Shown here: in pieces, positions 4,602 through 35,621 of the stretch
How positions within the stretch are numbered: position 1 is the stretch's first letter
Layout of the letters: each line of letters begins with the position of its first letter
Source of the DNA: a virus
Taxonomy: Duplodnaviria > Heunggongvirae > Uroviricota > Caudoviricetes
Virus record (IMG/VR): IMGVR_UViG_2724679172_000015
DNA: 36,413 bases
Direction: 5' to 3' (one strand)
The notes under the pieces: model-generated
What the model saw: only the letters and a program-made list of their open reading frames with translations
The model's database searches: none
What the model was told of the DNA's origin: nothing
Position numbers and translations under genes: made by a program

Positions 4602-5768
4602 TTAAACCCCTTTGACAACGTCAGCGTTGACCTGTGGAACCCCGATTTCAGCGGCCAGATTCATGGCGGCTATTACCAGGTTACTGACGGCCAGCGGATA
4701 CAGCAGGCTGACCATATTTTTACGATGACTTCCCGGATTGCTCAGGCGGGTACGTATGGCATCCACTGCGCTGGCGTCCATAATGTCCGTCAGTTGTTTA
4801 CCGGCCCGTTGCAGTTTGAACGTCAGAAATTCTTCAAGGTGATTGTCCAGAGGCAGAAGTTCGACCACCTCACAGCGCTGAACGACTTCGCGGACTTCCA
4901 TATTGCGTTCAGACAGTTTTGTCGCCAGTTCCGGCTGGCCAATCAGCACGATGGACAGCAGTTTTTTGAAACCGGACTCCAGCTCAAAAAAGCGTTTGAG
5001 GTGTTTCAGTGTCGGAATGGGCAGACTGTGGGCCTCCTCAATCACCAGAACGTGGCTGAACCCCGCCTGGCTGCTGTCTTTCAGGACGCGATGCAACTGG
5101 CGAAAGCGGGCGTCCTGACTGCGTCTGATGCTTTCCAGTGGTGCGATGGTACTGATAATGGCTTCGGCAATCGCTGCTGCCTTCAGGGTTTTCCCTTTCA
5201 CATCGTTGTCTTCCATAGCGATGATGTATGGCTCGATAACAATTACCGGCGCATTCTCGCGGTTGATACGTTCAGTCAGGTCACGGCGCAGCGTGGATTT
5301 ACCCGCACCGGACTCACCGATGACGGCCATAAACCCACCATGACGGGCTGTCTGGTACAACGCCTCACGCACGTAGCGAATGTCCGGGGTGGTGAACACA
5401 TCATCAGAACCCTGCATGGCTTCGTCGGCGAACGGGTCACGGAAAAGACCAAACGCTTTTTTGGTTGCTGGAAATAACACCTGTTTTTTGAGTAACATAT
5501 TCTCTTCCTCACTGAGGCTCGTTTTATCTGTGGTACCCGCTGTACGGGGCGTGGCCGCGCCCTGTACAGCATCAAAACTCTTCGCTGTATCAATCCCCTG
5601 ACTTTCCAGCCAGGACGCAAGACGCCGGCGCACTTCTCCGGGGCTGGTGCGGGGCCACGCGTTATGATTCACAATCTGGGCCAGCGTGGCCTCAGAAACA
5701 TCGACAGCTCTCGCCACCACCGCCTGTGGAATACGGGCCTCTTTCAGTTGCTGCTTCAGTACCAGCAT
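4602..5768 (-). CDS. MuB-like transposition ATPase (AAA+), 388 aa from the preferred start
   Basis: Walker A GESGAGKST, Walker B-like HVLVIEEAH; N-terminal HTH-like segment; start set at second ATG (5768) because GAGGAGGG precedes it; sits directly downstream of the transposase gene as in Mu. Confidence 0.75.
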   Translation of the reverse strand: MLVLKQQLKEARIPQAVVARAVDVSEATLAQIVNHNAWPRTSPGEVRRRLASWLESQGIDTAKSFDAVQGAATPRTAGTTDKTSLSEEENMLLKKQVLFPATKKAFGLFRDPFADEAMQGSDDVFTTPDIRYVREALYQTARHGGFMAVIGESGAGKSTLRRDLTERINRENAPVIVIEPYIIAMEDNDVKGKTLKAAAIAEAIISTIAPLESIRRSQDARFRQLHRVLKDSSQAGFSHVLVIEEAHSLPIPTLKHLKRFFELESGFKKLLSIVLIGQPELATKLSERNMEVREVVQRCEVVELLPLDNHLEEFLTFKLQRAGKQLTDIMDASAVDAIRTRLSNPGSHRKNMVSLLYPLAVSNLVIAAMNLAAEIGVPQVNADVVKGV

Positions 5769-5778
5769 GTTTCCCTCC

Positions 5779-7548
5779 TCAGTTGCCGTTAACAATGCTG
5801 ATAACGCTGCTGCGGGCCGGCGTGGTCAGCGTAGCCATGACTTCATCCAGTGCGGCTTCCGGTACGCCGTCCGGATACTGTGCCGTTAACTGGCGGTAAT
5901 GTTCCGGCGTCCAGGTAAGGCCGTTGGCGCTGAACTTCCCGCGCAGGGCTTTCGCGGCCTCCACATGAGTCATGGGACGCTGTTCAGTGCGCGGTCCGCG
6001 TACGTCAGAGGCCTGACCTCGCTTCGGTATACAGGCCGGAAGTGTGGCGTCATCAATATGTTTATACGGGTCAAGCCGCCCGCCGAACGGCAGCGCCTTC
6101 GCCTTGCGTGCGGCAGCTGCATCTGCGGCGTTGTCTGTACCGGTGACCAGCGCTTCGGTTTCTTTTGCCGCCATCTGCGCCGGGGTTTCCGGCAGGGCTT
6201 TGTAACTTTCGCCAAATACCGCCGCGCCTTCAGCAAAGCCAAACTCGTTCTTTCTGACCTCTTCGACCAGGAAGAACGTCTCGTGGCCGTCCTCACCGGT
6301 CAGAACCACCTGTGCCACATCGCTGCGCCACGGGTTACGGGTAATCATCAGTTTTTCACCGACCAGTACGCCCGGTACCGTTGATACGTCAAATTCAGTG
6401 CCCCGGAACGAGACACGAAGTTTTGGCGTGACTTTGCGGAGTTCTGGTGCCGCCACAGCCAGTTCACGACATACCTCAACGGAAGGCGCTTTTTTCAGCT
6501 GCTCAGCAGTAATCTTCAGCCAGATATCCGTGCGGGTTTTACCGTGGCGGCTGTGAACAGCCGTGGCGTTAAAGTGGCTGCGCCATTTCGCGGCCAGCGC
6601 GTTGAGTTCTTCCAGACTGTGAACCGGCCGGAACTTCAGACCCGGCTCCAGCTTGCGTTCGATAATGTCACGCGCCTTTTCCACCTGTCCGGTGGCGCGG
6701 GCGTTATGCGGCTTGTGCGCTATCAGGTCAATGCCCAGTGAGCGGCACATGTTTTTCGTCATACCCGCGGTGTTTGCCGAGCCGGGGTCGAGATAGAGTA
6801 TTTTTGGCACGCCGTGCAGCACGTCTGCGCCGCCACGCTCCTGCATGGCGTTGATAAGCACAGAACACAGGTTCTCACCGGATTCCGCACCCGTCACATA
6901 CTCAACGTAAATCCAGCCGCTGGCATGGTCGGTAATCTCGTAACTCCACACGCGGTCACTGGCGATACGGGCAAGGTTAGCGGGTTTGTTCTTGTAGAAC
7001 TTCGCGCTGTCCATCACCTGCAGCCCTTTGTGTCCATTGCTCAGGTAGTAAAGCGTGCAGAGAGAGGCATCAATCTGCCAGACATGATTGGGATGCAGAC
7101 TGGCCACTTCGGTATGCGGCGCAGGGGCATCCAGTTGTTCCGGGTGCAGGCCATAGTTACGCAGGGCACGACTGATGGCATCTTCGGACAACGGGAAAAA
7201 CTCACCGGTGGTTTCATCTGTTCTGCCTGCGGAGATAAAGCCGTTAGCCCGCAGGGTTTCCACTGCATCCGCGATGGAATAGAGACGCTTACCGTTCTTG
7301 CGGGTGGCCTCACGCAGTGTGGCAGATATCAGCGCGGCTTCGTCGCGGGTCAGGGCGCTGCGCCCGGCATCGGCGCGTTTTTTGCGTTTATCAGTCACAG
7401 ATACCTCCTTCAGCCTGCGCAGCAGAGTGGCGCGGGACATGCCAAGTTCAGCACAGGCAGCGTCGTATATTGCACCGCGTTTACCATGCCCCGCGTCACG
7501 TGCCGCGCGGGCGACATAAACCAGTCGTTCAGTCAGGGCAGCATTCAT
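5779..7548 (-). CDS. MuA-like DDE transposase, 589 aa
   Basis: GGAGG RBS; N-terminal HTH, integrase-core-like region (HVWQIDASLCTLYY...), size and position upstream of the B-like ATPase. Confidence 0.8.
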   Translation of the reverse strand: MNAALTERLVYVARAARDAGHGKRGAIYDAACAELGMSRATLLRRLKEVSVTDKRKKRADAGRSALTRDEAALISATLREATRKNGKRLYSIADAVETLRANGFISAGRTDETTGEFFPLSEDAISRALRNYGLHPEQLDAPAPHTEVASLHPNHVWQIDASLCTLYYLSNGHKGLQVMDSAKFYKNKPANLARIASDRVWSYEITDHASGWIYVEYVTGAESGENLCSVLINAMQERGGADVLHGVPKILYLDPGSANTAGMTKNMCRSLGIDLIAHKPHNARATGQVEKARDIIERKLEPGLKFRPVHSLEELNALAAKWRSHFNATAVHSRHGKTRTDIWLKITAEQLKKAPSVEVCRELAVAAPELRKVTPKLRVSFRGTEFDVSTVPGVLVGEKLMITRNPWRSDVAQVVLTGEDGHETFFLVEEVRKNEFGFAEGAAVFGESYKALPETPAQMAAKETEALVTGTDNAADAAAARKAKALPFGGRLDPYKHIDDATLPACIPKRGQASDVRGPRTEQRPMTHVEAAKALRGKFSANGLTWTPEHYRQLTAQYPDGVPEAALDEVMATLTTPARSSVISIVNGN

Positions 7549-23910: not shown

Positions 23911-24161
23911 TGAAAGAATACCGCTATTCCGGCCCGGCCAGCGGCGTCACGCTGTCGGACGGAACCGAAATCCTGCTCTGGCCGGGGAAGACGGTTTCCC
24001 TGCCGGAGGAGCATGACTACGTGAAGGTACTGGTGGCGCTGAAACATCTGACGCCGGTACCTGAAGAGACTAAACCCGCCGGCACACCGGCTGTGCAGTC
24101 ACCAAAGCGCAGAAGCAGCAGTGACAGCGAAGTGAAAACGGAGGACACCCATGGCAGCTAA
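23910..24161 (+). CDS. Small hypothetical protein, 83 aa
   Basis: GAGGAA RBS; overlaps sheath gene start. Confidence 0.45.
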   Translation: MKEYRYSGPASGVTLSDGTEILLWPGKTVSLPEEHDYVKVLVALKHLTPVPEETKPAGTPAVQSPKRRSSSDSEVKTEDTHGS

Positions 24162-25578
24162 CTATCTGCATGGTCCCGAAACCATTGAGGTGGAAAACGG
24201 TGCCCGCCCGGTTAAAACGGTGAAATCTGCCGTTATTGGCCTGATTGGTACCGCCCCGATGGGGGATGTCAATACGCTGGTACAGTGCCTGTCTGAGAAA
24301 GACGCAGCGGCATTTGGCAGCCAGTTCACCGGCTTTACCATTCCGCAGGCGCTGGATGCGATTTATGACCATGGTGCAGGTACCGTTCTGGTCATTAACG
24401 TCCTCGACCCGGCGAAACATAAAACGGCGATCGAGGATGAGGTGGTTACCTTTGACAAATCGACAGGGCAGGCCAGACTGGCGCATCCGGTTGTCGCTAA
24501 TGTGGTGGTGAAAAACAGTGAAGGCAGCACCTCCCACACGGCGAACACGGACTACCGTGTTGATGCGCAGGCGGGTGTGCTCACGAACCTGGGCAAGGCT
24601 ATTGAGGCCGGTGGCAGCGTGAAGGTGAGCTATGAGTACGCGGACCCGTCGAAGGTGACTGCGGCGGACATCATCGGCGGGGTGAACAGCGCCGGAAACC
24701 GAACCGGCATGAAGCTGCTTAACGACAGCTTCAACCTGTACGGCTATTTCGCCAAAATTCTGATTGCGCCGGTGTTCTGCACCCAGAAGAGTGTCGCAGT
24801 TGAGCTTATCGCCATGGCAGAGAAGCTGGGCGCGGTAACCTACATTGATGCGCCTGTCGGTACCACCTTTGCACAGGCTCTGGCAGGTCGTGGCCCGGAA
24901 GGCACCATCAACTTCAATACCAGCTCCGACCGCGTCCGTCTGTGCTATCCGCATGTGAAGGTATATGACCCGGTGACAAACACAGAGCGTCTGGAGCCGC
25001 TCAGCCAGCGTGCAGCAGGTCTGCGTGCCAGAGTCGATCTGGACAAGGGCTACTGGTGGTCATCCTCCAATCAGGAGATTCTGGGGATCACCGGCGTGGA
25101 GCGCCAGCTGTCCGCGATGATTGATGACCCGCAGAGTGAGGTGAACCTGCTTAACGAACAGGGGATCACCACGGTATTCAGCAGTTACGGCAGCGGCCTT
25201 CGTCTGTGGGGTAACCGGACGGCAGCATGGCCAACGGTCACCCATATGCGTAACTTTGAGAACGTTCGCCGCACCGGTGATGTGATCAACGAGTCCATTC
25301 GTTATTTCAGCCAGCAGTACATCGACATGCCGATTACTCAGGCGCTGATTGATGCACTGACGGAGTCGGTCAACGCCTACGGTCGCAAAATGACTGGTGA
25401 TGGTGCGGTACTGGGCTTCCGTTGCTGGTTTGATCCGGCCCGCAATCCGGAGACGGAGCTGGCCGCCGGGCACCTGTTGCTGAGCTACAAATATACGCCA
25501 CCACCGCCGCTGGAGCGACTGACGTTTGAGACTGAGATCACCTCGGAATACCTGTTAACCCTGAAAGGGGGCAACTGA
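24151..25578 (+). CDS. Contractile tail sheath protein (P2 FI / Mu L family)
   Basis: 475 aa; GGAGGA RBS; motifs shared with P2 FI as I recall it (AVIGLIGTA, LNEQGITTVF, GLRLWGNRT, YKYTPPPPLERLTFETEITSEYL). Confidence 0.9.
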   Translation: MAANYLHGPETIEVENGARPVKTVKSAVIGLIGTAPMGDVNTLVQCLSEKDAAAFGSQFTGFTIPQALDAIYDHGAGTVLVINVLDPAKHKTAIEDEVVTFDKSTGQARLAHPVVANVVVKNSEGSTSHTANTDYRVDAQAGVLTNLGKAIEAGGSVKVSYEYADPSKVTAADIIGGVNSAGNRTGMKLLNDSFNLYGYFAKILIAPVFCTQKSVAVELIAMAEKLGAVTYIDAPVGTTFAQALAGRGPEGTINFNTSSDRVRLCYPHVKVYDPVTNTERLEPLSQRAAGLRARVDLDKGYWWSSSNQEILGITGVERQLSAMIDDPQSEVNLLNEQGITTVFSSYGSGLRLWGNRTAAWPTVTHMRNFENVRRTGDVINESIRYFSQQYIDMPITQALIDALTESVNAYGRKMTGDGAVLGFRCWFDPARNPETELAAGHLLLSYKYTPPPPLERLTFETEITSEYLLTLKGGN

Positions 25579-26099
25579 TGTCAAAGATTGAGATAAACCG
25601 CATCACGAATGCCAACATCTATCTGGATGGTACTAACCTGCTGGGACGGGCTGAGGAAGTTAAACTCCCCGATGTCTCCATGATTATGCAGGAACACAAG
25701 GCGCTGGGGATGGTGGGTAAGGTGGAACTCCCGGCTGGTTTTGACAAACTGGAAGGCGAAATCAAATGGAACAGCTTTTACCGCGATGCGATGCTGTCTG
25801 CCGCGAACCCGTACAGGTCGCTGGCACTGCAGTGTCGTTCCAGCGTCCAGCGCTACAGCTCGCAGGGGCTGATTGACGAAATCCCGCTGGTCACCTTCCT
25901 GACGATTATGTTCAAGAAGAACCCGCTGGGGACGTTCAAACAGCACGAGAACGCCGAGTTCTCCAGTAGCTTCACCTGCACGTATATCAGACAGGTACTG
26001 GATGGTGAAGAGCTGCTGCAACTGGACTATCTGGCCAACATCTTCCGGGTCGGCGGTGTTGATCAACTGACTGACTACCGTATCAATATCGGGGGCTGA
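25578..26099 (+). CDS. Tail tube protein (P2 FII / Mu M family)
   Basis: 173 aa directly after sheath gene, ATG overlapping sheath stop, AAGGGGG RBS. Confidence 0.8.
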   Translation: MSKIEINRITNANIYLDGTNLLGRAEEVKLPDVSMIMQEHKALGMVGKVELPAGFDKLEGEIKWNSFYRDAMLSAANPYRSLALQCRSSVQRYSSQGLIDEIPLVTFLTIMFKKNPLGTFKQHENAEFSSSFTCTYIRQVLDGEELLQLDYLANIFRVGGVDQLTDYRINIGG

Positions 26100-26480: not shown

Positions 26481-26816
26481 ATGTCACAGACCCCATCCGA
26501 TACTTTTAAATTGTCTTATCCCTTCACCACTGCTGCAGGCACCAGAATTGAGCTGGTTGAACTGAAACGCCTGACGGTAAAAGACCTGAAGCAGGTGCGC
26601 AAAATCAGCAAAAACCCGGCAGACTGGGACGAACCGCTGATTGCCCGCAGTACTGGTCTTCTCCCGGAAGATCTCGACAATATGGATCTGGCTGATTACC
26701 TGCAGTTACAGAAACGATTTCAGCTCATCACGGGGATGGGTGAGAGCAACCAGGGCGCTGACGCAGGCGCAGGGGCTGCTGGCGAGATGGTTCCGGTTTC
26801 AGCCGGGGGAGATTGA
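26481..26816 (+). CDS. Tail assembly chaperone (P2 E-like), with probable frameshift-extended isoform ending at 26898
   Basis: 111 aa ORF with AGGAG RBS directly upstream of the tape measure gene; overlapping +1-frame ORF (to 26898) with protein-like C-terminus. Confidence 0.6.
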   Translation: MSQTPSDTFKLSYPFTTAAGTRIELVELKRLTVKDLKQVRKISKNPADWDEPLIARSTGLLPEDLDNMDLADYLQLQKRFQLITGMGESNQGADAGAGAAGEMVPVSAGGD

Positions 26817-26973
26817 TGCCCTCGATACTGACGATCTGGAGATGTGGCTGGAGCAGGCTGAAGAGCAAATAAAAAGCGAGTACGGCGACAAATCATAGTA
26901 CAGACAGCCGCCAGTAGCGGCTGTTCTGCGTTATTCCCTCACGTCTTTTCACCTTCCCCGGAGGTTAACCACT

Positions 26974-29925
26974 ATGTCGGGACAGTTTTCAGTCGGCGTT
27001 GTTATCGGCGGGATGATTGGCAGCACATTCCGTTCTGCAATGAGCGGTACCCGCCGTGCGCTTGATTCCCTGAGCGATACCTCACGCCGCCTGCAGGAAC
27101 GTCAGAACGCTTTAACCCGTGCAACAGAACGTTATGGTCAACTGGGTTCTTCCCGGATGCAGCATCTCAACAGCGAGCTGCTGCGGGTAAGCCGCACCAT
27201 GGAGCAAATTGAGCGCCAGCAGCGCCGTCTGTCAGCGGCATCCGCTACCAGTGATGCGCTGAAAGCTAACCGCATGGCGCTGTATGGTCAGGGGATTGAA
27301 GCGTATGGCATGGCACAGACTGTTTATCATACGGTTTCCCCTGCCGTTCAGCAGTCCATGTCTTTTCAGGACAAAATGATTGATATGTCGATCACCGCAA
27401 AATATGACAATAAAACGCGGGATGCACTTGCCGGACAGATAAAAGGCTGGGCGCTTAAATACAATCAGTATCAGGATGAGCTGCAGGAGGCGGTGGGTTC
27501 ACTCATCAGCGACAATATTGATAATGTGTCAGATATCGGTTTTCTGATGCCGGATATTGCCCGCGCGGCAACGGCAACACGCACGTCTGCTCAGGACTGG
27601 GCAAAAGTGGCCGCAGTCTGGCAAAACTCCCTGAAAGGTGCGGCCAGAGATTTTGGTGCCGTTCAGAATATTATGGCTTATGCCGGTGACCAGGGGTCAT
27701 TTGAAATCCCGGATCAGGTCAAGTGGATGCAGTCCCTGGCCCCAATGATGGCGGGTATTGCCAGTGGAAAAGAGGCTGTTGCTGAAATCGGGGCCAGTCT
27801 CCAGATAGCAAAAATCGGTGCAGGTTCCACCGACGAAGCAGCCAATAATTTTAAAAACTTTCTTACCAAAATTTTTGCCCGCGATACTCAGAAACAGTTT
27901 GCTGATCTGGGTATTGATTTGCAGGGATCTATTGCGAGTTATAAAGCTGCGGGGATCTCTCCGATTGAAGGGATGTTGAGTGTTATAGAACGTTACCTCA
28001 ATGCCAAAAGCCCCGAAGCGCTGGCCGGCTTCAAATCAGCCATGAAAATAAAGAATGATACGGCAAGAGATGAGGCACTTCAGGCTCTGGCGAAAAACTT
28101 TGGTCTGGGCGATATGTTCGCGGATATGCAGGTCATGGCATTTATCCGCCCGATGCTGGCCAACATGGACAGATATCGAGAGATCCGTGCCGGTGCTCTC
28201 AGGGCTGCGGATAACGATTTGCTTGCCAGTGCTTATGATCAGCGGCTGAAATCTCCCCTTGAAGCCACTAAAACACTTATGGTCAGCAGTCGCGATCTGG
28301 CAATTACGCTGGGCGATCAATTAGCTCCATCTTTTATTTCTTTGACTCAGGAACTGCTTCCACTCATTCAGGGGGCAAAACACTGGGTAGCGACTCACCC
28401 GCAATTTGTCAGTGGGGCTTTTAAGCTCATCAGTGCGCTCCTTGCGATTAAGATAGCGACTGTTGGTCTCAAACTGGGGCTGAATCTCCTTATTTCCCCC
28501 TTTGTAAGTGTCTGGAAAAATGCTGTTTTACTTCGGGCCAACTGGCTTCGTCTGTCGCTCGCACTGGGGCAAGGCGGTAAGCTCCGCTGGCTGGTGACCG
28601 GATTTAGCGCCGTCGCCAGAGGAGCCAGAACACTGAGTGGCGTGCTCTCCGGGGGGCTGGTTCGCGGAATTATGCTCGCCGGACGTGCTGTTCTCTGGAT
28701 TGGACGTGCGCTGATGATGAATCCCATCGGTCTCGTTATCACCGCTGTCGCGGCAGCAGCTTACCTTATCTACCGCAACTGGGGGGCAGTCAGTGGCTGG
28801 TTTAAACAGCGCTGGGCAGACATTCAGGAAGCCTTTAACGGCGGCATTGTGGGAATTGGTAAGTTACTGATTAACTGGTCGCCGGCAGGCCTGCTCTATA
28901 AAGCCTTTGCGGCTGCGCTGAAATATTTCGGCGTTGCTCTGCCGGCAAAGTTCACCGACTTCGGTGGCCATCTTATCGACGGTCTGATTAACGGTATCAA
29001 AAACAAATGGGGGTCGCTCAAATCCAGTGTAACCGGAATGGGTGACAGCATCAGTAGCTGGTTTAAACAGTGCTGGGCTGACATTCAGGAAGCCTTTAAC
29101 GGCGGTATCGCGGGAACTGGTAAGCTGCTGATTAACTGGTCGCCGGCAGGTCTGCTCTATAAAGCCTTTGCAGCTGCGCTGAAATATCTTGGTGTTGATC
29201 TGCCGGCAAAGTTCACCGACTTCGGTGGCCATCTTGTCGACGGTCTGATTAACGGTATCAAAAACAAATGGGAGTCGCTCAAATCCAGTGTAACCGGAAT
29301 GGGTGACAGCATCAGTGGCTGGTTCAGTGAAAAGCTGGGTATTCATTCGCCGAGCCGCGTGTTTATGGGCTTTGGTGACAATATCGCGCAGGGGGCCGCC
29401 ATTGGCCTGCAGCGGACCACTCCGCTTGCAGCTCTGGCCGGGCAGCGAATGGCCAGTGAACTGCTCCCCAAAATGCCCGTGAGCATTCAGGGGCCAGAAA
29501 TACGGGATAACACTTCAGGTGTTCGCTTCAGTATGCCGTTGCCCGATATCAACGGGTTTATGTCGTCTGCTAAAAATGCGATCGGAGCCGTAATCAATAG
29601 TTTGTCTTCCATGCCCGCTATCCCGCTCTCCACCCGGGCATCGATTTTACCAGGGCAACGTCTGGCAAATGAGATGACACCGGATGTTCCCCGTATCCCC
29701 TCGCCTGAAATCATGGCTGCCGGATATTCAGGCCGTGGTGCAGCTGCAACCGGCGGTGGAACGTCTGGTGGTATCCAGGTCAGCTTTAATCCTCAGTTTT
29801 TCCTCAATGGCAGGGAAACCACAGCGCCTGCAGGACTGACTGGTGCCCTGAATATGAGTCTGCATGAGCTGGAAAAAATGCTGGAGCGTCTGCTGGCTCA
29901 GAAACAACGTAAGGAGTACCGCTGA
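26974..29925 (+). CDS. Tail tape measure protein
   Basis: 983 aa; helical N-terminal region, hydrophobic central segments, internal tandem duplication; position between chaperone and baseplate genes. Confidence 0.85.
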   Translation: MSGQFSVGVVIGGMIGSTFRSAMSGTRRALDSLSDTSRRLQERQNALTRATERYGQLGSSRMQHLNSELLRVSRTMEQIERQQRRLSAASATSDALKANRMALYGQGIEAYGMAQTVYHTVSPAVQQSMSFQDKMIDMSITAKYDNKTRDALAGQIKGWALKYNQYQDELQEAVGSLISDNIDNVSDIGFLMPDIARAATATRTSAQDWAKVAAVWQNSLKGAARDFGAVQNIMAYAGDQGSFEIPDQVKWMQSLAPMMAGIASGKEAVAEIGASLQIAKIGAGSTDEAANNFKNFLTKIFARDTQKQFADLGIDLQGSIASYKAAGISPIEGMLSVIERYLNAKSPEALAGFKSAMKIKNDTARDEALQALAKNFGLGDMFADMQVMAFIRPMLANMDRYREIRAGALRAADNDLLASAYDQRLKSPLEATKTLMVSSRDLAITLGDQLAPSFISLTQELLPLIQGAKHWVATHPQFVSGAFKLISALLAIKIATVGLKLGLNLLISPFVSVWKNAVLLRANWLRLSLALGQGGKLRWLVTGFSAVARGARTLSGVLSGGLVRGIMLAGRAVLWIGRALMMNPIGLVITAVAAAAYLIYRNWGAVSGWFKQRWADIQEAFNGGIVGIGKLLINWSPAGLLYKAFAAALKYFGVALPAKFTDFGGHLIDGLINGIKNKWGSLKSSVTGMGDSISSWFKQCWADIQEAFNGGIAGTGKLLINWSPAGLLYKAFAAALKYLGVDLPAKFTDFGGHLVDGLINGIKNKWESLKSSVTGMGDSISGWFSEKLGIHSPSRVFMGFGDNIAQGAAIGLQRTTPLAALAGQRMASELLPKMPVSIQGPEIRDNTSGVRFSMPLPDINGFMSSAKNAIGAVINSLSSMPAIPLSTRASILPGQRLANEMTPDVPRIPSPEIMAAGYSGRGAAATGGGTSGGIQVSFNPQFFLNGRETTAPAGLTGALNMSLHELEKMLERLLAQKQRKEYR
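28798..29319 (+). repeat. In-frame tandem duplication inside the tape measure gene (2 x 261 bp, 87 codons each)
   Basis: Units 28798-29058 and 29059-29319 are near-identical (WFKQ.WADIQEAFNGGI...GMGDSIS.WF); periodicity is a multiple of 3. Confidence 0.85.
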
Positions 29926-30809
29926 TGTTTGCCGTACTGGGTGATATTGAGTTTGAGCTGATTACCTACTGGGACGGCTTCGAGGCCACGTTCGGCGTCG
30001 ATTATGCGGAGCATGCCCGCATCGGGGGTAAGCCTGGCCTGCAGTTCGTCGGCGACAGGCTGGACGAAATCCAGATAACTCTGGTTTTCCATCAGCATTA
30101 TTGTGTACCCGATGTGGAGCTGGCGAGACTGCGAACAGCCATGAAAGCCCATCAGGCACTGGCGCTGGTCTTCGGCAACGGTGACTATCGCGGCTGGTTC
30201 GTGATTACCGATGTGACTGCAACCAGCGAGCAGACTGACAGTACCGGCAACGTGCTGGCTGTCAGTGCCACCGTGTCTCTCCGGGAATACACCGGTGACC
30301 CGAAAAATCCTCTGCAACCACCGGCAATACGCACGAAGCTCCCGGGTGTCGGGGCGGTCTCCGGTGCCATTCCTTCACCTTCCGGGGTGGCGCAGTTCAT
30401 CCGCAACGGCGTCAACTATGCGAAACAGGCGCAGTCTGTACTCCAGACCACTATCAGCGCCGTTCGGGTGACACAGAAAATGAAGGATAACCCCGTTGTC
30501 GCACTGACCCGTGTGCCGGGGCTGATGAGCGGACTGGGTAATATCTCCGGGGCTCTGGGGAAAAGTGTTCCGGCGTTTAACGCACTCTCTGAATCCATGC
30601 CCGATGCCATCAGTCTGGCCAGAACAGCCAGCGAAGCAGCCACGTATGTACAGCAGGCACAGTCTGCGCTGAGTGGTGTGGACAAAAGAAATATTGCAGG
30701 TGCTCTGGATACCGTTTCCGGGCAGCTTAACGCCGCCGGCACAGCATTCAACCGCATGTCTCCGGGATTAAGTGCAATGGCCGCCAGAATACTGACGAGG
30801 AGTGTGTGA
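29925..30809 (+). CDS. Tail protein with gpU / DNA-circulation (Mu N) N-terminal-like domain
   Basis: 294 aa; AAGGAG RBS; N-terminal region resembles P2 gpU pattern; Ala/Ser-rich C-terminal extension. Confidence 0.55.
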   Translation: MFAVLGDIEFELITYWDGFEATFGVDYAEHARIGGKPGLQFVGDRLDEIQITLVFHQHYCVPDVELARLRTAMKAHQALALVFGNGDYRGWFVITDVTATSEQTDSTGNVLAVSATVSLREYTGDPKNPLQPPAIRTKLPGVGAVSGAIPSPSGVAQFIRNGVNYAKQAQSVLQTTISAVRVTQKMKDNPVVALTRVPGLMSGLGNISGALGKSVPAFNALSESMPDAISLARTASEAATYVQQAQSALSGVDKRNIAGALDTVSGQLNAAGTAFNRMSPGLSAMAARILTRSV

Positions 30810-31021
30810 TGTTTCTTGAACATGTTACCCGTGACGGAGAGCGCTGGGATTCGCTGGCATGGCAGTACTACGGTGACCCGCTGGGCTATCCCCGGATTAT
30901 TGCCGCCAATCCGCACGTGGCCATCACGCCGGTGCTGCCCTCCGGGCTGTTGTTACTGATCCCGGTGATTGAGGCTGAAGAAGCCCGTACAGAAGAGGAT
31001 ATTGCCCCATGGCTGAGATAA
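30809..31021 (+). CDS. Tail protein X-like (LysM-like small tail protein)
   Basis: 70 aa; GAGGAG RBS; WQYYGDPLGYPRIIAANPHVA...LPSGLLLLIPV resembles P2 gpX. Confidence 0.6.
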   Translation: MFLEHVTRDGERWDSLAWQYYGDPLGYPRIIAANPHVAITPVLPSGLLLLIPVIEAEEARTEEDIAPWLR

Positions 31022-32181
31022 ACAGCACTGCGCAAGTCACATCAGCGTTAACCGGCGTCAGCGATGTGCTGACACCGGTGTTCACTTTGTGGTATCTGCA
31101 GAAAAACATCACCTCTGATATCGCGCCTTATGTCACCCGTGTGACCTGGAGCGATAACATCAAAAATGAGTCCGATACCATTGAGGTGGAGCTGGACGAC
31201 ACCGATGGCCGCTGGCTGGATAAATGGTATCCGGGCAAGGGTGACACGCTGACGCTGAAAATGGGCTATCAGGGCGAGAAGCTGCTGTCCTGCGGTACGT
31301 TCTCTATAGACGAGATCGAAGTGAGTTCGCCCGCTTCCGTTGTTTCTATCCGTGGGGTGGCCACCTCGGTTAACAGTGCCCTGCGGACTAAAACCAGTCG
31401 TGGTTTTGAGAACACCACGCTGGCAGCTGTTGCGGGGCGGATTGCCAGAAAGCACCGACTGAAACTGGTGGGCAGCATTGAGTCCATCAGAATCGACCGG
31501 GTGACCCAGTATGCTGAAACCGACGTGGGTTTTCTGCGCCGGCTGGCCAGCGAGTATGGTTATGCAGTGAAAGTGGTCAGTGACCAGCTGATTTTTTCTC
31601 ATCTGGCCACACTGCGCAGTCAGGAGCCGGTCAGGCAGTTAAAACCGCAGGATGTGGCCCGCTTTTCCCTGCGTGACACCATCAACCGGGTCTATAAATC
31701 TGCAAAGGTAAAACACCAGAAAAGCAGCAGTAAAAAACTGATCGTCTACGAAGCTGATGGTGGTACCCGTGAAAGCGACAAAAAGCTCAAAGGTGGTAAG
31801 GTTACCAGCGCTGACTCACTTAAAGTTAACAGCCGCGTCAGCGACCCGGACAGTGCCCGGATTAAAGCGGATTCAGCACTGGCCAGACATAACGAATACC
31901 AGCAGAACGGCTCCCTGACGCTGACGGGAACACCTCAACTGACAGCAGGCAACAAAATTGAACTGGTGGGTTTTGGGCAGTTATCTGGGCCATGGCTCAT
32001 AACCACTGCCCTCCATGCGTTTGAGCGTAACAGCGGCTACACCACAGAGCTGGAAGTGGCACGGGGGCCGGTCACACAGGGCAAGGCGAAGAAAGGTAAA
32101 AAAACCGGCAAAACCCGGACGCTGACCATCTATAAACCGGACGGCAGCACGTCCACAGTAATAAGAGAGAAGAAAAAATGA
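31009..32181 (+). CDS. Baseplate hub / late control D-like protein (P2 gpD / Mu P family)
   Basis: 390 aa; position after X-like gene and before spike gene; lysine-rich C-terminus. Confidence 0.7.
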   Translation: MAEINSTAQVTSALTGVSDVLTPVFTLWYLQKNITSDIAPYVTRVTWSDNIKNESDTIEVELDDTDGRWLDKWYPGKGDTLTLKMGYQGEKLLSCGTFSIDEIEVSSPASVVSIRGVATSVNSALRTKTSRGFENTTLAAVAGRIARKHRLKLVGSIESIRIDRVTQYAETDVGFLRRLASEYGYAVKVVSDQLIFSHLATLRSQEPVRQLKPQDVARFSLRDTINRVYKSAKVKHQKSSSKKLIVYEADGGTRESDKKLKGGKVTSADSLKVNSRVSDPDSARIKADSALARHNEYQQNGSLTLTGTPQLTAGNKIELVGFGQLSGPWLITTALHAFERNSGYTTELEVARGPVTQGKAKKGKKTGKTRTLTIYKPDGSTSTVIREKKK

Positions 32182-34203: not shown

Positions 34204-34774
34204 GGTGCTACAACTCCCGCCACCGCTTGAGGGTGATATCAGTCTCAGAACGCTGGGAAGACTGGCCGGACGGCTGGATAACATCGACCTGAGCGTACTG
34301 ATGGTCGGTCTCGTCGATATTGTCGACAGTTCCGCGCTGCCATGGCTTGGCGAGCAGTTCTCGCTGTTCGGCGATGGCTGGGAACTGGCGGAATCGGACG
34401 ATGTACGCCGCATGCTTATAAAAGCAGCCATCGAACTGCACCGGTATAAAGGGACGCCGTGGTCAATCCGGGAAGTTATCCGCCGTTTTGGCTTTGGTGA
34501 AGTGGATCTGATTGAAGGCACAGGTCGTCTCAGTTACGACGGCAATCGCAGCTATAACGGACTGTTTGTTCATGGAGATGCAGCCGCCTGGGCAGTTTAT
34601 CGCGTTATTCTGAAACAGCCCATTACTAACGATCAGGCCGCGATGCTGCGTCAGACGCTGGCTGCATTTGCACCGGCCCGCTGCCATCTGGCCAGCCTGG
34701 AGTATCAGTCTGTGGCCATTCGCTATAACAATACCGCCATCCATGATGGCAGTTATAACCACGGGAGCAGTTGA
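34196..34774 (+). CDS. Tail protein I-like (P2 gpI / Mu gp48 family)
   Basis: 192 aa; overlaps J-like stop; precedes tail fiber. Confidence 0.65.
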   Translation: MAEVLQLPPPLEGDISLRTLGRLAGRLDNIDLSVLMVGLVDIVDSSALPWLGEQFSLFGDGWELAESDDVRRMLIKAAIELHRYKGTPWSIREVIRRFGFGEVDLIEGTGRLSYDGNRSYNGLFVHGDAAAWAVYRVILKQPITNDQAAMLRQTLAAFAPARCHLASLEYQSVAIRYNNTAIHDGSYNHGSS

Positions 34775-34776
34775 TT

Positions 34777-35571
34777 ATGGGAAACCTGAATGAAACAGAA
34801 AAGTGGGAAGAAAATATCTATCAACTGGAGACATCAGATCCGGTTCTGGGTGGTGCAGACGGGATATCAAATCGAGCCCCCCGGCAACTGGCAAACAGGA
34901 CGAAATGGCTGAAGAAGAAAACGGAGGAAGCCGCACAGTCACTGGCTGAACACGTACGTTCCCGTAACCACCCGGACGCGACACTGACAGCTAAGGGGTT
35001 CACCCAACTGAGCAGTGCCACCAACAGCACCTCTGAAACGCTGGCCGCCACACCAAAAGCGGTCAAGGCTGCATACGACCTGGCAGCCGGCAAGGCGCCT
35101 GCCAGCCACACTCACCCGTGGAGTCAGATAACGGGAGTGCCTGCGGCTTCACTGACGGCAAAAGGCACCGTACAACTGAGCAGCGCCACGGACAGTCAAT
35201 CAGAAACTGAGGCTGCCACGCCGAAGGCTGTGAAAATCGCGTATGATCTGGCCCGGGGAAAATACACAGCCCAGGATGCAACAACGACCCGTAAAGGGAT
35301 CGTACAACTGAGCAGTGCCATCAACAGCACGTCTGAAACGCTGGCCGCCACACCGAAAGCGGTCAAGGCTGCATACGATCTGGCAAACGGAAAACAACCG
35401 GCAGATGCCACGCTCACTGCTCTCGCAGGACTTGCCACTGCAGCAGATCGGTTGCCTTATTTTACCGGAGCAGACCGCGCAGCGCTGGCAACCCTTACAG
35501 CTATTGGTCGCGCGATTATCGCTAAGGGCAGTATAAAAGATGTCCTCAATTACCTTGGATGTTGCGTTTAA
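34777..35571 (+). CDS. Tail fiber protein, proximal (constant) part with three internal repeats
   Basis: 264 aa; GGGAG RBS; three repeats of QLSSAT.S.SET.AATPKAVK.AYDLA; terminates 18 bp before a gix-like site. Confidence 0.7.
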   Translation: MGNLNETEKWEENIYQLETSDPVLGGADGISNRAPRQLANRTKWLKKKTEEAAQSLAEHVRSRNHPDATLTAKGFTQLSSATNSTSETLAATPKAVKAAYDLAAGKAPASHTHPWSQITGVPAASLTAKGTVQLSSATDSQSETEAATPKAVKIAYDLARGKYTAQDATTTRKGIVQLSSAINSTSETLAATPKAVKAAYDLANGKQPADATLTALAGLATAADRLPYFTGADRAALATLTAIGRAIIAKGSIKDVLNYLGCCV

Positions 35572-35586
35572 TTACATCGTAAGGGC

Positions 35587-35612
35587 CGCATAAAAACGTT
35601 GGTTTGGGGGAA
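35587..35612. other. Candidate Gin/Hin/Pin-family DNA-invertase crossover site (gix-like)
   Basis: CGCATAAAAACG-TT-GGTTTGGGGGAA: right half matches the invertase half-site consensus (reverse complement TTCCCCCAAACC vs TTATCNNAAACC), 2-bp core, weaker left half; lies exactly at the fiber constant/variable boundary. Confidence 0.4.
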
Positions 35613-35621
35613 GGCTCTGCA

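Follow-up and report, generated by a model that had tools for sequence, protein, structure and literature searches.

The tail tape measure protein gene of the virus record IMGVR_UViG_2724679172_000015 (Duplodnaviria; Heunggongvirae; Uroviricota; Caudoviricetes) contains two adjacent copies of a 261-bp sequence, which raises the questions of how and when this array arose, whether its copy number still changes, and what each copy would contribute to the phage tail. The whole 36,413-nt stretch analysed is referred to here as the window. Taking the evidence together, we consider it probable that the array is an established duplication of an 87-residue module that originated at a short motif, that it is subject to ongoing unequal recombination, and that each unit would correspond to approximately 13 nm of tail.

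Tandem Repeats Finder detected a single strong array in the window, at 28790-29324 (period 261, 2.0 copies, 93% matches, 0% indels, score 951), and a base-by-base comparison at an offset of 261 delimited the homology to the same interval, from 28790 to 29324 (29063+261). The codon-aligned units cover 28798-29319, where 28798 lies in frame 0 of the open reading frame (ORF) at 26974-29925, and are arranged head to tail without indels. A preliminary description based on the sequence alone had proposed a contiguous, in-frame tandem duplication of 87 codons (261 bp), which was confirmed by the self-comparison at this offset together with the codon alignment. The gene and its two units are as follows:

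26974-29925, plus strand, tail tape measure protein gene, 983 amino acids (aa), identified by PF10145, TIGR01760, phrog_28 and the RefSeq annotation of a near-identical gene
28798-29058, plus strand, repeat unit 1, aa 609-695, delimited by Tandem Repeats Finder, offset plot and codon alignment
29059-29319, plus strand, repeat unit 2, aa 696-782, delimited in the same three ways

The two units differ at 17 of 261 nt (93.5% identity; 15 transitions and 2 transversions), and these differences fall in 15 codons, 7 with synonymous and 8 with amino-acid-changing differences. The likeness is far beyond chance, because the probability of at least 244 of 261 matches at p=0.3 is approximately 1e-104. 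The units had been called near-identical, which is fair with respect to their identity and the absence of indels, whereas the "handful" of differences mentioned at that time understates 17 nt and 8 aa. By the Nei-Gojobori method, the units are separated by 9 synonymous and 8 non-synonymous substitutions, with a synonymous divergence (dS) of 0.17 and a non-synonymous divergence (dN) of 0.04, and they are under purifying selection (dN/dS 0.24). The aromatic residues of the 87-aa unit are irregularly spaced (positions 1, 2, 6, 13, 27, 34, 37, 43, 44, 52, 55 and 71), and no model for the unit itself was found in NCBIfam or Pfam. An antisense ORF of 160 aa (28864-29346, minus strand) also lies inside the repeat; its Pfam matches were all below threshold, and we dismissed it as a gene, since the repeated sequence most likely gives rise to it as a by-product.

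The placement of the repeat inside a tape measure gene, also proposed in the preliminary description, was borne out by profile searches. Specifically, the ORF at 26974-29925 matched PF10145 (PhageMin_Tail; 74 bits against a cut-off of 33.2, 2e-20), the NCBIfam model TIGR01760 (tape_meas_TP901; 58.6 bits against a cut-off of 28.8) and phrog_28, "tail length tape measure protein" (E = 8.5e-135). A near-identical gene in RefSeq is labelled "phage tail tape measure protein". In the translation, one further segment that is relevant below immediately precedes the repeat:

28405-28782, plus strand, hydrophobic Gly-rich segment of the tape measure protein, approximately aa 478-603

A match to the gene was found in 636 of 5426 complete Escherichia coli genomes. 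The same two-copy gene, with 99.6-99.9% identity over its whole length, was found in IMG/VR contigs as well as in dozens of finished chromosomes of E. coli, and the sequence type 131 (ST131) lineage carries a two-copy allele that is approximately 94.6% identical over the repeat region. Among 60 genomes drawn evenly from 634 matching E. coli genomes, approximately 42 carried two copies and approximately 11 carried three (3 verified by sequence), 1 had a hybrid one-copy allele of the kind described below, and 4 had a distant single-copy type of 821 aa.

Repeats of this kind can be falsely expanded or made chimeric during assembly, and the array does disturb assembly and annotation elsewhere. In the record of phage PhiKM (L001), a sequencing gap at 4914-5240 replaces unit 1, which makes this record unusable for copy number; the apparent 4-unit (or 7-unit) array in the IMG/VR scaffold L021 was rejected because an N gap (at ~2997) lies within its run of identical units; and the intact three-copy tape measure ORF of E. 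coli C7 (L007, 1175-4387) was split by the Prokaryotic Genome Annotation Pipeline (PGAP) into two pseudogene fragments. For the window, however, an assembly artefact is extremely improbable, considering that the identical two-copy structure recurs in those dozens of independently finished chromosomes and IMG/VR contigs and that the two units can be told apart about every 15 nt on average. The key copy-number examples given below come from finished chromosomes. In practical terms, the repeat breaks short-read assemblies and misleads automated annotation, and copy number should be trusted only from reads that span approximately 0.8 kb.

Among the 120 best homologues, three protein length classes were prominent: 26 proteins of 896 aa, 43 of 983 aa and 17 of 1070 aa, which contain one, two and three units, respectively. 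The origin of individual units was read in the DNA of the alleles at the 17 sites that distinguish unit 1 from unit 2, each site being scored as 1 or 2, with slashes separating blocks of sites. The one-copy alleles L005 (a finished genome), L024 and L025 typed as 111111111/22222222, a clean hybrid of unit 1 and unit 2. Two three-copy alleles, L007 and L027, and at the protein level also P0001, have unit 1, then a middle unit typed as 222222/12111111111, and then unit 2, so that the middle unit is the reciprocal hybrid. Three other three-copy alleles (L006, L008 and L020) have the order unit 1, unit 1, unit 2, while unit 1 of the ST131 strain EC958 typed as 1/2222222/111111111, with a conversion tract from unit 2. 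Unit 2 is the terminal unit, and the gene is open, in all one-, two- and three-copy alleles examined. In the flanks of the array, only 2-5 substitutions in 1824 nt and 7-8 in 606 nt separate the window from the genes with one, two or three copies. Between copy classes, each flank shows only 3-8 substitutions, and the flanks are more than 99% identical.

The repeat had been proposed as a substrate for copy-number change by recombination, and alleles with one, two and three units (896, 983 and 1070 aa) that include unequal-crossover hybrids indeed occur in public genomes. Comparison of these alleles shows that the array changes copy number by unequal recombination, because reciprocal hybrid units are found in contracted and expanded alleles with near-identical flanks. 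The same comparison shows the two 261-bp units serving as the substrate for unequal homologous recombination and gene conversion, from which one-copy (896 aa) and three-copy (1070 aa) alleles arise repeatedly. The reciprocal hybrids in contracted and expanded alleles and the conversion tracts resemble what is seen in bacterial tandem coding repeats that undergo unequal crossover or conversion. Unlike those, the units here are long (261 bp) and 6.5% diverged, and the changes should consequently be of the RecA type and rare rather than fast, slippage-type phase variation.

The duplication had been described as recent, and this part of the preliminary description did not hold. The units are 6.5% diverged (dS ~0.17), and their unit-specific substitutions are common to all the two-copy E. 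coli alleles mentioned above, including that of ST131. Moreover, the 17 distinguishing sites were polarised against 59 relatives with a single copy, taken from IMG/VR and other records. The state prevailing in this outgroup is retained by unit 1 at 7 sites and by unit 2 at 10, which leaves 10 derived changes in unit 1 and 7 in unit 2. The divergence, the occurrence of the same diverged units across hundreds of E. coli genomes and the derived changes on both units indicate that the duplication is not recent but older than the diversification of this prophage group in E. coli. The recent events are secondary gains and losses of a unit. The single-copy 896-aa proteins were considered as the ancestral form, but their 96-99% identity to the window protein and their hybrid unit 1/unit 2 composition mark them as secondary deletions, and the idea was rejected. 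The ancestral state is instead represented by more distant single-copy genes, for example, L010 and L003.

A different history would be that the units did not diverge in place, and that the array was created when two tape measure alleles that had diverged beforehand, for example, those of two related prophages in one cell, recombined unequally; the event might then be younger than a divergence of 6.5% implies. In favour of this, more than one related copy is often present in a genome (a median of 2 places and a maximum of 9, the repeat itself being counted), and the gene is a mosaic: within 300 nt of the hydrophobic segment just upstream of the repeat (28474-28773), there are approximately 59 differences from the ST131 (EC958) allele, while the rest of the gene is nearly identical. 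Nevertheless, the nearest non-hybrid single-copy units show 22-30 differences from either repeat unit (full range 22-63), their diagnostic states are mixed, and none of those sampled was markedly closer to unit 1 or to unit 2. In addition, the array is old relative to the present alleles under either history, since the same units occur across hundreds of genomes. We regard an origin from two diverged alleles as unlikely and prefer divergence of the units after duplication.

The edges of the array suggest how the duplication began. The array exceeds the codon-aligned units by 8 nt upstream and 5 nt downstream, which is exactly the extent of a 13-nt motif, and the motif was read in the sequence at three places:

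28790-28802, plus strand, 13-nt motif TCAGTGGCTGGTT at the left array edge, encoding ..SGWF
29051-29063, plus strand, internal copy TCAGTAGCTGGTT at the unit junction, altered by a single G>A (Gly>Ser)
29312-29324, plus strand, 13-nt motif TCAGTGGCTGGTT at the right array edge, the same 13-mer as at the left edge

The resulting Ser at unit position 87 was found in every non-terminal unit of the two- and three-copy alleles examined. In the distant single-copy gene L010, the module is flanked by TCAGTAGCTGGTT on the left and TCAGTGACTGGTT on the right, which match each other at 11 of 13 positions. The founding step could have been a single slippage or illegitimate recombination event between copies of the motif that flanked the module in single-copy genes, and such an event at short direct repeats would be the simplest origin of the array. 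Subsequently, both copies accumulated differences under purifying selection, reaching a nucleotide divergence of 6.5%, and the two-copy allele became the common E. coli form.

Changes in module number extend to the wider family. An exhaustive, profile-free search with the 87-aa unit recovered 624 representative clusters at E <= 1e-3. Full-length unit matches were counted in the 92 full-length representatives among the best 150, and 69 of them had one match, 21 had two, 1 had three and 1 had four; several of the 92 also carried extra half-units. These counts indicate that the 87-aa module is an old building block of this tape measure family whose number has changed many times, and that the window represents the most recent layer of this change. 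Independent in-frame tandem duplications in the same tape measure region were also found in relatives: one of 101 aa in P0018, one of 564 bp (188 aa, 99% identical) at 2936-4075 of L066, and a diverged 235-aa duplication at aa 648-969 of the L078 tape measure ORF, which was found by the unit search and missed by Tandem Repeats Finder. All three (101, 188 and 235 aa) take in the hydrophobic Gly-rich segment upstream of the repeat.

A second length polymorphism lies downstream of the array. It consists of a 71-aa segment (aa 823-893, 29440-29652) that lies between the similar peptides GQRMASE and GQRLANE, once more a short flanking repeat; exactly this segment is missing in the 821-aa relatives of E. 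coli GABEEC10 (L010) and Klebsiella phage KP12 (L003).

Belcaid, Bergeron and Poisson (2011, PMC3271669) described tape measure proteins in which the number of 11-aa Trp/Phe repeats varies; units of this class have 11 or 18 aa, with Trp/Phe at a fixed spacing. As in those proteins, the protein studied here changes length when tandem units are duplicated or lost, its history can be read from unit-specific substitutions, and the number of units varies (1-3 in close relatives and 1-4 in distant ones). In contrast, the unit here has 87 aa, which is neither 11 nor 18 nor a multiple of 11, its aromatic residues are irregular, and it changes by large homologous-recombination steps rather than through short periodic repeats.

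Changes in tape measure length through internal duplication are textbook knowledge, and the rise per ring in contractile tails is approximately 4 nm. Judging by ruler experiments with other phages, this protein would be extended inside the tail tube, and its end would stop the polymerisation of tube and sheath. The ruler rule assigns 0.145-0.15 nm of tail to each tape measure residue (PMC5099701) and has been applied in PMC9928086; in the Mu-like myovirus KS10, a tape measure protein of 811 aa accompanies a tail of ~140 nm (PMC2628397). By this rule, each unit would add approximately 13 nm (87 x 0.15 nm), or approximately 3 tube/sheath rings. A gain of this size per unit is plausible, as is the tail lengthening proposed in the preliminary description, and in that case the one-, two- and three-copy alleles would represent natural variants of a single phage that differ in tail length. 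Engineered changes of the tape measure in lambda (gpH; Katsura & Hendrix 1984) and TP901-1 (Pedersen 2000; Mahony 2016, PMC5099701) are comparable in being in-frame length changes with approximately 0.15 nm expected per residue. They differ in being laboratory constructs in non-contractile siphoviruses, whereas the 1/2/3-unit alleles are natural, belong to a Mu-like prophage with a contractile tail and are known from sequence.

It might also be that the duplication is real and leaves tail length unchanged, if the module belongs to a part of the protein other than an extended ruler, such as a compact or membrane-inserting channel-forming domain beside the hydrophobic segment; a change in copy number would in that case influence the delivery of DNA, or have no effect. 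The module directly follows the long hydrophobic Gly-rich segment and itself contains Gly-rich motifs, structural searches gave neither a solved relative nor a reliable model, and a large number of the prophage copies seem defective, with the possible consequence that the variation is neutral. However, TP901-1 deletions and duplications shift tail length proportionally, and deletions in its repeat region and in its first hydrophobic region shortened the tail in proportion to their size (PMC5099701). The open reading frame in all the one-, two- and three-copy alleles examined and the purifying selection on the units also count against this reading. An absence of any effect on tail length is thus improbable in our judgement, and we retain the reading in which each unit would lengthen the tail.

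Several considerations nevertheless count against the account as a whole. Given the gaps at the repeat in PhiKM and L021, some one- and three-copy alleles in draft assemblies may be artefacts, and the 6.5% divergence could stem from two diverged parental alleles. The tail-length step is carried over from a ruler rule established in other phages, and a literature search for papers on phage PhiKM with tail measurements found none. A lumen-extended module does not receive support from structure: the sequence search of the Protein Data Bank with the tape measure protein gave no solved relative, and the single-sequence AlphaFold2 model of aa 551-849, which is almost all helix, is unreliable, with a mean predicted local distance difference test score (pLDDT) of only 43.3. 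Finally, some prophage copies are decaying, and several genes of the prophage in E. coli IAI39 have internal stops; neutral drift in defective prophages may therefore account for some of the differences in copy number.

The surroundings of the gene agree with its assignment. The following neighbours were identified in the window:

24151-25578, sheath gene
25578-26099, tube gene
26481-26816, plus strand, P2 gpE-like tail assembly chaperone (PF10109 Phage_TAC_7, 5.5e-21), adjoining the tape measure gene upstream
29925-30809, plus strand, gpU-like tail protein (PF06995 Phage_P2_GpU, 7.4e-39), directly downstream of the tape measure gene
31009-32181, gpD homologue

The order sheath, tube, chaperone, tape measure, gpU and gpD places the tape measure gene at its expected position and is the same in the RefSeq record of IAI39. 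An ORF that overlaps the chaperone in the +1/-2 frame runs to 26898 and is labelled "GpE family phage tail protein" by RefSeq in DLI.5a. The overlap (26481-26898) resembles the frameshift pair that is customary for such chaperones and may be of the -2 type stated for Mu (PMC2628397); a slippery site was not identified.

The window and a prophage of E. coli IAI39 (L004) are co-linear, and the annotation of the latter includes a DDE transposase, its AAA+ partner, Gam, Mor, a DUF935 portal, head and virion morphogenesis proteins and a P2-type contractile tail. Two domain matches in the window concern the early region:

5779-7548, minus strand, ORF with an rve domain
4602-5795, minus strand, ORF with an AAA_22 domain

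PhiKM, a close relative, is filed under Bcepmuvirus in GenBank. On the basis of gene content, the source is a BcepMu-like prophage of E. coli with a contractile, P2-type tail and predicted transposition. It shares with BcepMu and KS10 (PMC2628397) the leftward early operon (DDE transposase, AAA+ B-like protein, Gam and Mor), the lysis genes, the Mu-type head and the contractile tail. It differs in belonging to an E. coli lineage, and a repeat in the KS10 tape measure protein, which is the 811-aa protein cited above, is unmentioned in that paper.

In IAI39, two fragments of the Ail/Lom gene of another prophage (L004, 3839-4012 and 40896-41330) flank the Mu-like prophage, indicating that the transposable phage inserted into a lambdoid prophage. 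The tail-fibre gene of the window (34771-36077) is in two pieces, a stop-terminated constant part of 266 aa and, in another frame, an ORF of 157 aa with a Collar domain. The split is caused by an insertion of approximately 40 nt (junction ~35558-35597), a repeat of the fibre gene's 3' end (..AFNYIVRAA*), where IAI39 is uninterrupted. In addition, positions 35594-35824 match an inverted copy beside a recombinase gene in IAI39 (the L004 region concerned is 37210-38394), which suggests an invertible fibre segment. The IAI39 fibre gene also contains tandem repeats of the Phage_fiber_2 motif (300-bp x2.7 and 168-bp x3.6), which the window is without.

One further reading, which we put forward as speculative and improbable, is that the one-, two- and three-unit alleles are a selected tail-length dial rather than neutral by-products, with recombination possibly boosted by the many phage copies in a lytic cell. 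If this were true, tails ~13 nm shorter or longer would be favoured on hosts that differ in the thickness of the capsule or O-antigen, and the independent duplications of 87, 101, 188 and 235 aa would be convergent responses. Irrespective of selection, the prophage is present in approximately one-ninth of finished E. coli genomes, including ST131, with one-, two- and three-unit alleles in near-identical backgrounds (for example, DLI.5a with one unit, KE50 or the IAI39 type with two, and C7 or FDAARGOS_1303 with three), and it constitutes a clean natural experiment. With it, the ruler model would be testable in a contractile-tailed phage without engineering, and the link between tail length and host surface could be examined.

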